A DNA stretch of 64,000 bases from Escherichia coli (GCF_013122565.1 NZ_CP053258.1); one strand, 5' to 3'; shown: positions 44,475-49,880, counted from the first letter of the stretch. Translations and numbers: made by a program. The notes: generated by a model from the letters alone, not told the origin.

Positions 44475-46889
44475 TCACCCCGCAAACTGCCTGAACAGCG
44501 CCTTACCCTTAACCAGTCGCGCACCCAGCCAGCCGCCGCAAAGCGACAGCAGCAGCGCTCCGCTGCACGGCAGAACAATCCACAATCGCCAGTCTGGCTC
44601 CCACGGGAAATCAAACACTTTCGCCTGCAACACTGCCAGCGCCGTTTCCGCACCAATTGCGGCCACCAGGCCAGAAACAAACCCAAGCATGGCGAACTCA
44701 CACCACAATGTCGTGCGCAGCAGCTTTTTCCCCGCACCGAGTGTGCGCCACACCACCAGCTCCTGATGACGCTGACGCATTCCCACCTGCACCTGTGCCA
44801 GCAACAGCAACATACCGCAGGCGGTGACCAGCACCACCATCACCTCCAGCGCCCGACTTACCTGCTCCAGCACCTGACCGACCTGTTTTAAAATCGCGCC
44901 AATGTCTAACAGGCTAATGGTCGGGAACTGGCGGTTGAGTTGCGTCAACATGCCGTTGCCATTCTCCCAGCGGAAACTGGTAAGCCAGCTCTGCGGTTGC
45001 CCGTCTAATGCCCCTTCAGGGAAAATAAAATAGAAATTAGGCCGCAGACTTTCCCAGTCCACTTTGCGCAGGCTGGTCACTTTAGCGCGGAACTCCTGGG
45101 TATCGCCCATAAAAGTCACGGTATCACCGAGGGCAACGTTTAAGCGTTTCGCCAGCCCCTCTTCCATCGACACTTCATCGGCTTTTGGCGGCCAGTTACC
45201 GGCGACAATCGGATTATGATCGGGCCGCGTATTTTGCCAGGTAAGATTGAGTTCGCGGTTAAGCGCCTCATCTTCATTACCTTCTGTCGGCTTATCGTTA
45301 ATCGCCGTCAGCCGCGCCCGCACCACCGGATAAAACGATTCCGGGACTATCTGATGTTCCGCGAGGAACGCTTTTAGCGGTGCTACCTGTTCTGTGGCGA
45401 TGTTAATTAAAAAGTAGTTCGGGCTTTCTGGAGGTAGCTGCTGCTGCCAGCGGTCGAGCAGATCGCCACGCAACACCAGCAGCAGTGCCAGCAGCATAAA
45501 GGAGAGCGAAAATGCCGAAAGCTGGCTTAACGTTGACCACGGCTGACGTAACAGGCGGCTAACCGCCAGGCGCAGAGGCAGCGATTTCAGCGTCATGCGG
45601 CGAAGTACATTCAGCAGCATCCAGCCCAGCACACCGCACAGCAAAGCCAGTACTACCGCGCCCGCCAGCACCGCCCAAAGCAGCATGCTGCCACCCATTA
45701 ATCCGGCGAGCAGCAGCACAACCACCACACTGACAATCGGCAGATAAAACTTCAGCGGCCAGACGTTCGCTACCACATCATTACGCAATACGCGTAAAGG
45801 CTGCGTTGCCAGCAACAAGCGGTACGGTCGTAGCCCCACCAGCAGCGAGATGACTGTCATGGTGCCCAGCGCCCATAGCCACGGCCAGAGGCTGGCAGGC
45901 GGTAGTGCAGCAGGTAGAACGGGCTTGAGCAGCACCATCAACACGTTTTCGAATAACAGGCCTATCGCCCCACCGGTAACGGCTGAAAGCGACAGCACCA
46001 TCAACCACTGACCGACGATTAGCTTACGCAGCTGCACTCGCCCAGCCCCCAGCGTTTTGAGGATCGCCACCAGATCGTAGCGACTGCGACAGTAATGATT
46101 CATCGCCACCGCCACCGCTGCCACTGCCAGCAGCAAGGTTAGAAGCGCAGAAAGCAGCAGGAACTGTTGCGAGCGTTCCATCGATCGCCCCAGCGCGCCT
46201 TCATCCTGTTCCAGACCATACCAGCGTTGTTCGGGTTTAAGCTGAGGTAACAACCATTTCTCATAGCCGTCGAGCTGGTTCTCGTTGCCGCCGAATTTAT
46301 AGCGCCAGGTGACCCGACTCCCCGGCTGCACGGCTCCGGTTTTATCGACATCCGCCAGATTCATCATCAGACGCGGAGCCATCTGGAAGGGGTTAAAACC
46401 GGAATCCGGTTCCTGAATCACTTCTCCGGCAATCCGCAAGGTGGCATCGCCCACGTCAATGGTGTCGCCCGTTTTCAGGTTAAGCAGTGCCATCAGGCGT
46501 GGGGCCAGCAATACGCTGCCCGTCTGTGGTTTCAGGCCGGGGGGATTGGTTTGCAGATCGCCATACATCGGGTAGATATCATCCACCGCTTTGACATTCG
46601 CCAGCTGCGGTGTGTCGCCTGCAAATGTCATGGTGGCGAAAGTCAGCTGCTTGCCGACTTTCAGGCCGCGCTTTTGCGCTTCCTCCAGCCACGCTTGCGG
46701 CACCTCGCGCGAACTGCGTAGCGCCCGGTCGCCCGCCATAAATTCACGGCTTTGCTGGCTTAAGCCTTTTTCCATGCGATCGCTGATATTACCCAGCGCC
46801 AGCACGCAGGCCACCGCCAGGCTTAACGCCAGCCAGACAATCAATAGCGAAGGCGAGCGCCATTCGCGCCAGAACCAGCGTGCAATCAT
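44475..46889 (-). CDS. ybbP: ABC transporter permease YbbP, FtsX-like (804 aa)
   Basis: Large polytopic FtsX/MacB-type permease; 4-nt overlap with ybbA. Confidence 0.92.
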   Translation of the reverse strand: MIARWFWREWRSPSLLIVWLALSLAVACVLALGNISDRMEKGLSQQSREFMAGDRALRSSREVPQAWLEEAQKRGLKVGKQLTFATMTFAGDTPQLANVKAVDDIYPMYGDLQTNPPGLKPQTGSVLLAPRLMALLNLKTGDTIDVGDATLRIAGEVIQEPDSGFNPFQMAPRLMMNLADVDKTGAVQPGSRVTWRYKFGGNENQLDGYEKWLLPQLKPEQRWYGLEQDEGALGRSMERSQQFLLLSALLTLLLAVAAVAVAMNHYCRSRYDLVAILKTLGAGRVQLRKLIVGQWLMVLSLSAVTGGAIGLLFENVLMVLLKPVLPAALPPASLWPWLWALGTMTVISLLVGLRPYRLLLATQPLRVLRNDVVANVWPLKFYLPIVSVVVVLLLAGLMGGSMLLWAVLAGAVVLALLCGVLGWMLLNVLRRMTLKSLPLRLAVSRLLRQPWSTLSQLSAFSLSFMLLALLLVLRGDLLDRWQQQLPPESPNYFLINIATEQVAPLKAFLAEHQIVPESFYPVVRARLTAINDKPTEGNEDEALNRELNLTWQNTRPDHNPIVAGNWPPKADEVSMEEGLAKRLNVALGDTVTFMGDTQEFRAKVTSLRKVDWESLRPNFYFIFPEGALDGQPQSWLTSFRWENGNGMLTQLNRQFPTISLLDIGAILKQVGQVLEQVSRALEVMVVLVTACGMLLLLAQVQVGMRQRHQELVVWRTLGAGKKLLRTTLWCEFAMLGFVSGLVAAIGAETALAVLQAKVFDFPWEPDWRLWIVLPCSGALLLSLCGGWLGARLVKGKALFRQFAG

Positions 46890-47572
46890 GCTTCCTCCTG
46901 CAACTGCCCATTCACCAGCCGTAAGCAGCGGTCGCAGCGTGCCGCCAGTTGCAGGTCGTGGGTCACCATAATCAACGTGGTGCCATGCTCACGGTTGAGG
47001 GAAAACAGCAGGTCGGCAATTTTATCACCCGTCTGGCGGTCAAGGTTACCGGTGGGTTCGTCGGCAAACAGCACATCAGGTCGACCGTTAAAGGCTCGCG
47101 CCAGCGCCACTCGTTGCTGTTCGCCGCCGGAAAGCTGTGCCGGAAGATGATCAAGACGTTTACCCAGCCCTAACTGTTCGAGCAACGCTTTCGCCCCGTT
47201 ACGACTTTCTGTGCTACTCTCACCGCGCAGCAGCGCAGGAAGCTCGACGTTTTCCAGCGCGTTAAGGGTAGGAATTAACATAAACGACTGAAAAACAAAG
47301 CCGACGTGCTTCGCGCGCAACTTTGCCCGCGCTTCTTCGTCCATATTATGTAGCGGTTGTCCCACCAGACTCACTTCGCCACTGCTGCCGTCATCCAGCC
47401 CTGCGAGGATTGCCAGCAAGGTTGACTTACCCGATCCCGACTCGCCCACCAGCGCGATGGTCTCGCCACGTTTGACAACCAGCTCAACTCCGGTGAGGAT
47501 GGAGAGTTCATGCTCCCCCTGACCGACGGACTTCTTAAGATGATGAACTTCAACAATGTTTTCCGCTGGCAT
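46886..47572 (-). CDS. ybbA: ABC transporter ATP-binding protein YbbA (228 aa)
   Basis: Walker A GESGSGKST, ABC signature LSGGEQQR, Walker B. Confidence 0.94.
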   Translation of the reverse strand: MPAENIVEVHHLKKSVGQGEHELSILTGVELVVKRGETIALVGESGSGKSTLLAILAGLDDGSSGEVSLVGQPLHNMDEEARAKLRAKHVGFVFQSFMLIPTLNALENVELPALLRGESSTESRNGAKALLEQLGLGKRLDHLPAQLSGGEQQRVALARAFNGRPDVLFADEPTGNLDRQTGDKIADLLFSLNREHGTTLIMVTHDLQLAARCDRCLRLVNGQLQEEA

Positions 47573-48166
47573 TTGCCCTTCCTGTTCCTGGTCCTGTTAA
47601 CCTTCCGCGCCGCCGCAGCGGACACGTTATTGATTCTGGGTGATAGCCTGAGCGCCGGGTATCGAATGTCTGCCAGCGCGGCCTGGCCTGCCTTGTTGAA
47701 TGATAAGTGGCAGAGTAAAACGTCGGTAGTCAATGCCAGCATCAGCGGCGACACCTCGCAACAAGGGCTGGCGCGCCTTCCGGCTCTGCTGAAACAGCAT
47801 CAGCCGCGTTGGGTGCTGGTTGAACTGGGCGGCAATGACGGTTTGCGTGGTTTTCAGCCACAGCAAACCGAGCAAACGCTGCGCCAGATTTTGCAGGATG
47901 TCAAAGCCGCCAACGCTGAACCATTGTTAATGCAAATACGTCTGCCTGCAAACTATGGTCGCCGTTATAATGAAGCCTTTAGCGCCATTTACCCCAAACT
48001 CGCCAAAGAGTTTGATGTTCCGCTGCTGCCCTTTTTTATGGAAGAGGTCTACCTCAAGCCACAATGGATGCAGGATGACGGTATTCATCCCAACCGCGAC
48101 GCCCAGCCGTTTATTGCCGACTGGATGGCGAAGCAGTTGCAGCCTTTAGTAAATCATGACTCATAA
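47540..48166 (+). CDS. tesA: Acyl-CoA thioesterase I / protease I / lysophospholipase L1 TesA (208 aa)
   Basis: ATG at 47540 (MMNFNNVFRWHL...); SGNH hydrolase GDSLS motif; 5' end overlaps divergent ybbA start by 33 nt. Confidence 0.93.
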   Translation: MMNFNNVFRWHLPFLFLVLLTFRAAAADTLLILGDSLSAGYRMSASAAWPALLNDKWQSKTSVVNASISGDTSQQGLARLPALLKQHQPRWVLVELGGNDGLRGFQPQQTEQTLRQILQDVKAANAEPLLMQIRLPANYGRRYNEAFSAIYPKLAKEFDVPLLPFFMEEVYLKPQWMQDDGIHPNRDAQPFIADWMAKQLQPLVNHDS

Positions 48167-48965
48167 AGCAACGGAGATCCTGACAGGTAAAGTTATGCAA
48201 AAATCGGTCTTAATTACCGGATGTTCCAGTGGAATTGGCCTGGAAAGCGCGCTCGAATTAAAACGCCAGGGTTTTCATGTGCTGGCAGGTTGCCGGAAAC
48301 CGGATGATGTTGAGCGCATGAACAGCATGGGATTTACCGGCGTGTTGATCGATCTGGATTCACCAGAAAGTGTTGATCGCGCAGCCGACGAGGTGATCGC
48401 CCTGACCGATAATTGTCTGTATGGGATCTTTAACAATGCCGGATTCGGCATGTATGGCCCCCTTTCCACCATCAGCCGTGCGCAGATGGAACAGCAGTTT
48501 TCCGCCAACTTTTTCGGCGCACACCAGCTCACCATGCGCCTGTTACCCGCGATGTTACCGCACGGTGAAGGACGTATTGTGATGACCTCATCGGTGATGG
48601 GATTAATCTCCACGCCGGGTCGTGGCGCTTACGCGGCCAGTAAATATGCGCTGGAGGCGTGGTCAGACGCGCTGCGCATGGAGCTGCGCCACAGCGGAAT
48701 TAAAGTCAGCCTGATTGAACCCGGTCCTATTCGTACTCGTTTTACCGACAACGTCAACCAGACGCAAAGTGATAAACCAGTCGAAAATCCCGGCATCGCC
48801 GCTCGCTTTACGTTGGGACCTGAAGCGGTGGTCGACAAAGTGCGCCATGCTTTTATTAGCGAGAAGCCGAAGATGCGCTATCCGGTAACGCTGGTGACCT
48901 GGGCGGTAATGGTGCTCAAGCGCCTGCTGCCGGGGCGCGTGATGGACAAAATATTGCAGGGGTGA
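48156..48965 (+). CDS. ybbO: Short-chain dehydrogenase/reductase YbbO (269 aa)
   Basis: TGxxxGxG cofactor motif (ITGCSSGIGLE) and YxxxK catalytic motif. Confidence 0.92.
   Translation: MTHKATEILTGKVMQKSVLITGCSSGIGLESALELKRQGFHVLAGCRKPDDVERMNSMGFTGVLIDLDSPESVDRAADEVIALTDNCLYGIFNNAGFGMYGPLSTISRAQMEQQFSANFFGAHQLTMRLLPAMLPHGEGRIVMTSSVMGLISTPGRGAYAASKYALEAWSDALRMELRHSGIKVSLIEPGPIRTRFTDNVNQTQSDKPVENPGIAARFTLGPEAVVDKVRHAFISEKPKMRYPVTLVTWAVMVLKRLLPGRVMDKILQG

Positions 48966-48983: not shown

Positions 48984-49880
<897 letters not shown>

Follow-up and report, generated by a model that had tools for sequence, protein, structure and literature searches.

A conserved head-to-head overlap of the tesA and ybbA coding sequences in Escherichia coli, with expression signals of each gene inside the other

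The divergently transcribed Escherichia coli genes tesA and ybbA overlap at their 5' ends, and the same few bases encode the N-termini of both proteins on opposite strands. This head-to-head overlap of two protein-coding genes is genuine, conserved, and rare. It was analyzed within a window of 64,000 nucleotides of E. coli DNA (GCF_013122565.1 NZ_CP053258.1), the whole stretch under study, in which all positions given here are counted from the first letter. The explanation as a whole, in which a genuine and conserved two-gene overlap is combined with mutually embedded expression signals, promoters that face each other, and the geometry of a divergent excludon, is given a probability of roughly 0.85. 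The arrangement itself is already known: it is annotated, it is noted in the paper on the structure of the YbbAP-TesA type VII ABC transporter-lipid hydrolase complex (PMC12646458), and it has been catalogued as a divergent excludon.

The coding features of the locus are as follows:

46886..47572, minus strand: ybbA coding sequence, the ATPase of the YbbAP type VII ABC transporter (ORF list, RefSeq, Pfam, PDB)
47540..48166, plus strand: tesA coding sequence, thioesterase I / protease I / lysophospholipase L1 (ORF list, RefSeq annotation, Pfam)
47540-47617, plus strand: TesA signal peptide, with the mature protein running from ADTLL (47618)
47543..47572, both strands: core head-to-head coding overlap of 30 nt, encoding TesA residues 2-11 (MNFNNVFRWH, plus) and YbbA residues 1-10 (MPAENIVEVH, minus)

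The plus-strand sequence of 47540-47572 is ATGATGAACTTCAACAATGTTTTCCGCTGGCAT. Read on the plus strand, ATGATGAACTTCAACAATGTTTTCCGCTGGCAT yields M-M-N-F-N-N-V-F-R-W-H, the N-terminus of TesA; read on the minus strand, it yields M-P-A-E-N-I-V-E-V-H-H, the N-terminus of YbbA. In the ORF list, ybbA occupies 46886..47572 (minus) and the tesA frame is open over 47510..48166 (plus). The initial annotation had set the tesA start at 47540, 33 nt inside the 5' end of ybbA (47572), with 11 codons of each gene shared, and both the sequence and the ORFs agree with it. The extent of the overlap depends on the tesA start that is chosen: ATG 47540 (the K-12 convention) gives 33 nt, ATG 47543 gives 30 nt, ATG 47510 gives 63 nt, and TTG 47573 gives none. 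Within the overlap, tesA codon positions 1/2/3 lie opposite ybbA positions 3/2/1. Given this phase, a synonymous third-position change in one gene is a first-position change in the other.

TesA matches the Pfam families Lipase_GDSL_2 (E=1.8e-29) and Lipase_GDSL (E=1.8e-27), both above the curated cut-offs, and its GDSLS motif (residues 34-38) is invariant in 81 sequences. Its N-terminus contains Arg9 in the n-region, a hydrophobic stretch (LPFLFLVLL), and AAA preceding ADTLL; cleavage of the E. coli TesA signal peptide occurs after residue 26. YbbA matches ABC_tran (E=8e-34) and is nearly identical to the YbbA of PDB 9GE6/7/8 (E=1e-144), and the neighbouring YbbP matches FtsX (E=9e-21). About 5,400 complete E. 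coli genomes match the stretch at 98-99% identity, and all are annotated ybbP-ybbA <> tesA-ybbO-cnoX, in keeping with the earlier suggestion that the arrangement is conserved with K-12. In E. coli K-12, tesA (b0494) and ybbA (b0495) are the same genes, in the same order and with the overlap, and the proteins are identical or nearly so. The one difference, not a substantive one, lies in the start chosen for tesA: the K-12 annotation takes the first ATG (33 nt), and the second (30 nt) is preferred by RefSeq/PGAP and by phylogenetic conservation.

The flanking genes of the two divergent units overlap on the same strand. The ybbP gene starts at an ATGA that contains the ybbA stop, a 4-nt overlap (46886-46889), and the last 11 nt of tesA (48156-48166) overlap the start of ybbO, whose ATG is at 48156; both junctions are typical of the translational-coupling type. 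The cnoX (ybbN) frame is open from ATG 48990, 12 codons upstream of its annotated start at 49026, and its start is thus ambiguous.

To follow the start codons, the locus was taken from 80 species-level Enterobacteriaceae genomes and the region was aligned (82 sequences in the alignment). The ybbA ATG (47570-72) is invariant in 82/82 sequences, as is the second tesA ATG (47543-45); the first tesA ATG (47540-42) is replaced by ACG in 16/82. Since the second ATG is invariant and the first is not, the conserved overlap is 30 nt (47543-47572). RefSeq/PGAP likewise places tesA at ATG 47543, and ybbA at 47572, in the closest E. coli genome. Thus the 33-nt overlap stands as the nominal length in this strain but not as the conserved one, the robust overlap being 30 nt, or 10 codons per gene. 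E. coli and the present strain carry the extra ATG, which stretches the core overlap to 47540, and in this strain TesA may initiate at 47540 too. Only a weak Shine-Dalgarno (SD) sequence (GGA, -3.2 kcal/mol) is found for the two tesA ATGs.

For ybbA, the ATG at 47572 is the only plausible start. A downstream start was considered and rejected: the ybbA frame contains no ATG, GTG, or TTG before Val42, and the structures of LolD, MacB, and MJ0796 align with YbbA from residue 4-10 onward, which puts the beginning of the ABC fold within the overlap.

The initial annotation had also proposed that the overlap constrains both N-termini, which is borne out by the invariant starts and by the codon positions. 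As a test of synonymous sites, third-position entropy was determined across the full length of tesA and ybbA in 81 sequences. In ybbA it is 0.14 in the overlap vs 1.06 elsewhere (Mann-Whitney p 6e-6), and in tesA it is 0.14 vs 1.00 (Mann-Whitney p 7e-6). Likewise, invariant third positions make up 7/10 of those in the overlap but only 14/218 elsewhere in ybbA (Fisher p 2e-6), and 8/10 vs 14/197 in tesA (Fisher p 2e-7). Ordinary constraint at the 5' end of a gene is insufficient as an explanation, since the first ~10 codons of the control genes cnoX, ybbO, and ybbP have third-position entropies of 0.66, 0.58, and 0.53, respectively. An antisense frame by itself could arise by chance, because the ybbA His-His codons CAT CAT read ATG ATG on the opposite strand. 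However, chance is ruled out by the invariant starts together with synonymous sites in the overlap that are conserved beyond both the rest of the two genes and the controls.

The protein sequences follow the same pattern. TesA F8-R9-W10-H11 and YbbA M1-P2-A3-E4-N5, which are encoded by the same 12-15 bases, are invariant, and the changes that do occur in the overlap come in pairs (for example, TesA N5K/N6Y with YbbA V7L). In signal peptides, the n-region is usually not less variable than the remainder. TesA shows the reverse, with a variability of 0.31 in the n-region and 0.59 in the rest of the signal peptide. By these measures of conservation, selection clearly acts on both reading frames in the shared DNA. 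A second patch of conserved synonymous sites (entropy 0.35 vs ~1.0) lies near the 3' end of tesA at 48112-48127. This patch precedes the ybbO start by 30-45 nt and adjoins a minus-strand transcription start site (TSS) at 48142.

With no intergenic DNA between the two genes, the expression signals of each sit inside the other:

47472..47477, plus strand: tesA -35 hexamer TTGACA, separated from the -10 by a 17-bp spacer and lying within the ybbA Val-Val-Lys codons
47495..47500, plus strand: tesA -10 hexamer GAGGAT, matching weakly (A2 and T6 are present) and lying 7 nt before the TSS
47508..47542, plus strand: tesA 5' UTR, 32 nt to ATG 47540 and 35 nt to ATG 47543, highly conserved
47576..47583, minus strand: ybbA SD sequence AGGAAGGG, forming a duplex of -7.0 kcal/mol with the anti-SD
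47727..48142, minus strand: zone of mapped ybbA(P) TSSs (47727, 47918, 47959, and 48142), all within tesA
47966..47971, both strands: perfect TATAAT in tesA, with TSSs at 47978 (plus, ybbO-cnoX) and 47959 (minus, towards ybbA), 19 bp apart

That the promoters should lie within each other's coding sequence had been predicted, and published K-12 maps agree, placing the tesA TSS in ybbA and all four mapped ybbA TSSs in tesA. Table S1 of Kim 2012 (PMC3415461) gives 45 reads for a tesA TSS that leaves a 5' UTR of 32 nt, and SMRT-Cappable-seq (Yan 2018, PMC6131387) detected a tesA-ybbO-cnoX transcript that starts at the same base. (SMRT-Cappable-seq coordinates were moved from K-12 v2 to v3 by +776, with cross-checks on qmcA, ybbL, and tesA.) Two independent K-12 datasets thus put the tesA TSS at 47508, in ybbA codon 22 and 5' of both ATGs.

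The -35 hexamer is invariant in 82/82 sequences even though it spans two four-fold-degenerate Val third positions. The -10 is GAGGAT here and AAGGAT in most relatives, and the ybbA third-position window at 47486-47501 is among the most conserved of the gene. Indeed, after the overlap itself, the most constrained synonymous windows of ybbA are those of the tesA -10 and the tesA leader. The leader is antisense to ybbA codons 11-22, and promoter and leader together occupy ybbA codons 11-34. A consensus scan for sigma-70 promoters over 47200-47900, with a rule that demanded at least 4/6 matches in the -10, returned no match; the scan is uninformative, since the mapped tesA promoter itself fails that rule. 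An Rfam scan of 46800-48300 at E<=1 found no RNA family. One sequence in the collection, from Citrobacter amalonaticus AUH_CA_2023_1 (L041), carries a 1-nt insertion at 47514/47515, within ybbA codon 20 and the tesA leader. The insertion would frameshift ybbA, and it probably reflects either a sequencing error of this long-read assembly or a pseudogene.

On the other strand, the core of the ybbA SD (AGGA, 47580-83) lies 7 nt before the ATG, and its positions are invariant in the 82-sequence alignment. It is opposite the TesA signal-peptide codons Pro13-Phe14-Leu15, whose third positions it constrains; the tesA third-position windows at 47569-47590 have entropies among the lowest in the gene. 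The hydrophobic-core codons of the TesA signal peptide contain the ybbA SD, and weak ybbA promoters lie 155-570 nt deeper in tesA. Of the mapped ybbA TSSs, 47727 and 47959 come from Kim 2012 (2 reads each, PMC3415461), and 47918 and 48142 come from Yan 2018 (PMC6131387). The corresponding 5' UTRs for 47727, 47918, 47959, and 48142 are 155, 346, 387, and 570 nt. These candidate TSSs differ between the datasets and are mostly not conserved, with good conservation only around 47959. The TATAAT at 47966-71, which encodes Tyr-Asn, is unchanged in 79/81 Enterobacteriaceae sequences although two of its sites are synonymous, and it looks like a conserved intragenic bidirectional promoter.

Because all mapped ybbA TSSs lie inside tesA, the ybbAP leaders are antisense to the tesA mRNA. 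The tesA and ybbA mRNAs are complementary over at least ~220 nt (47508-47727), a region that includes both ribosome-binding sites. Such divergent transcripts with overlapping 5' ends are the hallmark of divergent excludons, to which tesA-ybbA is assigned on those two features, the divergent orientation and the 5'-overlapping mRNAs. ExcludonFinder (PMC12288877) counts 16 divergent excludons that recur in 50% or more of 58 MG1655 transcriptomes, tesA-ybbA being one of them, and it reports p19-captured dsRNA for 40% of divergent excludons. Most excludons overlap in their UTRs, whereas tesA-ybbA overlaps in the coding sequences and both ribosome-binding sites as well.

The pair has divergent transcription out of common DNA in common with the bidirectional promoters of Warman/Grainger (PMC12825309), but its layout differs. 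Those promoters are back-to-back and share a symmetric -10; the tesA and ybbA promoters instead are face-to-face, 220-630 bp apart, and transcribe towards each other. Neither tesA nor ybbA is present in the supplementary lists of the bidirectional-promoter paper (PMC12825309). The internal TATAAT at 47966-71, however, does fit this class, since its opposite-strand TSSs are 19 bp apart and the class spacing is ~18 bp. Among overlapping genes more generally, Huvet and Stumpf 2014 (PMC4161906) counted 663 overlapping adjacent pairs in E. coli, of which 586 are co-oriented and 2 are divergent. The tesA-ybbA pair fits their overlaps by upstream shift of a start codon, and it belongs to the rarest, divergent class.

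More distant relatives indicate how the overlap may have arisen. TesA representatives at 40-70% identity were collected and their contigs fetched, which yielded 11 informative lineages, including Vibrio, Alcanivoracaceae, and Wenzhouxiangella. In 11/11, an ABC_tran gene is divergent from tesA and is followed by FtsX wherever the contig reaches that far. The called start-to-start distances are -33, -8, -2, -2, -2, 0, +13, +17, +21, +25, and +64 nt. Spacing was also measured independently of annotation, between the glycine codons of Walker A and of GDS. This distance is 193 nt in 79/81 of the E. coli and Enterobacteriaceae loci scanned, and in the distant lineages it is 196-238 nt in 10 and 299 nt in one; the two N-termini need ~200-225 nt of coding sequence. 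In Vibrio (L083, 2499-2502) and in an Alcanivoracaceae MAG (L088, 452-455), the two start codons share a palindromic CATG, a 2-nt overlap, and a third lineage at 40% identity has the -2 spacing as called in its annotation. The E. coli-type overlap (MNFKNVFRWH) is retained in a relative at 70% identity and in an Erwiniaceae TesA.

From these comparisons, the lack of an intergenic region is the ancient conserved feature, and the 30-nt overlap is its Enterobacterales version. The 30-nt overlap probably arose in the Enterobacterales by relocation of the TesA start to a position ~10 codons farther upstream; a divergent overlap needs movement of a start codon, and the relatives show a shared CATG or short gaps. 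One record in the collection, labelled 'Chryseobacterium sp. 18061' (L057, CACSKA010000001.1), carries an Enterobacteriaceae-type tesA-ybbA locus with a TesA 88% identical to that of the window. This record is probably a mislabelled or contaminated assembly. Its row in the start-region alignment has an identical duplicate (n=2), and 'Citrobacter sp. 18056' (L062), from the same project, is without a row of its own.

What the overlap does is a separate matter from its existence. The strongest rival to a functional reading, with a likelihood that falls only a little short of even, holds that the overlap exists but is neutral in function: start codons would have drifted in a gene pair whose head-to-head packing predates the diversification of the Gammaproteobacteria, and the overlap would be a side effect. 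In that case the arithmetic of two frames that share DNA, rather than selection for a regulatory interaction, would account for the strong conservation. Several results are consistent with such drift: the 1-3/2-2/3-1 phase by itself predicts near-invariance, the spacing varies among lineages (-33 to +64), which implies that the exact overlap is not what is conserved, and most of the ybbA TSSs, all of them weak, lack conservation. In addition, TesA and YbbAP, as partners in one complex, are not expected to exclude each other. Yet near-zero spacing is kept in 10/11 distant lineages, even though it forces promoters into coding sequence; apart from this, E. coli has hardly any divergent overlaps (2/663); and the tesA and ybbA transcripts demonstrably overlap.

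On the opposite idea, the near-zero-spacer packing would itself be selected, and RNA occlusion and facing polymerases would set the ratio or the timing of hydrolase and transporter. This idea is considered doubtful. It would hold that mRNAs complementary across both ribosome-binding sites titrate or occlude one another. Within the favoured explanation of the locus, convergent transcription or RNA-RNA pairing may couple the expression of TesA and YbbAP, and the candidate routes are transcriptional interference, RNase III cleavage, and mutual masking of ribosome-binding sites. Mutually exclusive expression, the classical outcome of an excludon, would be counter-intuitive for the partners of a single YbbAP-TesA complex. 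In the genuine two-gene overlap, the first 10 codons of YbbA (MPAENIVEVH) lie opposite the DNA that encodes the long n-region of the TesA signal peptide (MNFNNVFRWH).

The remaining alternatives concern the start of TesA. Public gene calls use all four candidate starts, which correspond to TesA proteins of 218 aa (ATG 47510), 208 aa (ATG 47540), 207 aa (ATG 47543), and 197 aa (TTG 47573), with called lengths ranging over 194-220 aa. Two of these starts lie outside the ATG pair:

47573..47575, plus strand: in-frame TTG, judged not to be the main start, giving TesA forms of 194-197 aa and no overlap
47510..47512, plus strand: upstream in-frame ATG, judged not to be the start, giving a 218-aa TesA and a 63-nt overlap

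If TesA started at TTG 47573, right after the ybbA start codon, then the coding sequences would merely abut and the overlap would be an artefact of annotation. Many gene callers do pick this TTG (KPN_00472, for example, is annotated as 594 nt), and the start codons of Vibrio and Alcanivoracaceae merely touch at their shared CATG. Nevertheless, this reading is very improbable. The mRNA from 47508 contains both ATGs, and the TTG, which has no SD (-1.5 kcal/mol), is lost in ~10/82 sequences, while ATG 47543 is invariant. Initiation at the TTG would leave the signal peptide without a charged n-region. Furthermore, the ybbA third positions in 47543-47572 are more conserved than those of the control gene starts, a difference that makes sense only if this stretch is also read in the tesA frame.

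Initiation at ATG 47510, with a 218-aa precursor, is hardly credible: the frame is open from 47510, the ATG is preceded by a strong SD-like GGAGAG (-8.4 kcal/mol), and some callers give 217-220-aa forms, but TSS 47508 places the ATG at +3 and the SD-like sequence 5' of the TSS and outside the mRNA, the first base of the ATG, a ybbA third position, varies freely (A43/G28/C9/T2 in 82 sequences), GGAG is limited to Escherichia, and the extension would place an acidic residue in front of the signal peptide. The frame from ATG 47510 does explain the 217-220-aa TesA gene calls found in databases. Although not conserved, this ATG makes the tesA mRNA almost leaderless, and in Escherichia it could permit low-level synthesis of a TesA with 10-11 extra residues. 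Together, conservation, the position of the TSS, and the logic of the signal peptide provide a clear recommendation that TesA be taken as translated from ATG 47543, rather than from 47540 or the TTG.

That recommendation matters in practice, since the start annotated for TesA differs from genome to genome (194 to 220 aa) and conservation clearly favours ATG 47543. The consequences for genetic work are direct. Any edit to the opening 10-11 codons of one gene alters the protein of the other, a hazard that covers leaderless 'TesA constructs used in fatty-acid engineering as well as clean ybbA knockouts. Edits in ybbA codons 11-34 can strike the tesA leader or promoter (TSS in codon 22, -10 in codons 25-26, -35 in codons 32-34), and edits in the TesA signal-peptide codons can strike the ybbA ribosome-binding site. 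For the biology of E. coli, the locus means that the rarest class of gene overlap in this organism joins two genes of one envelope machine, YbbAP-TesA.
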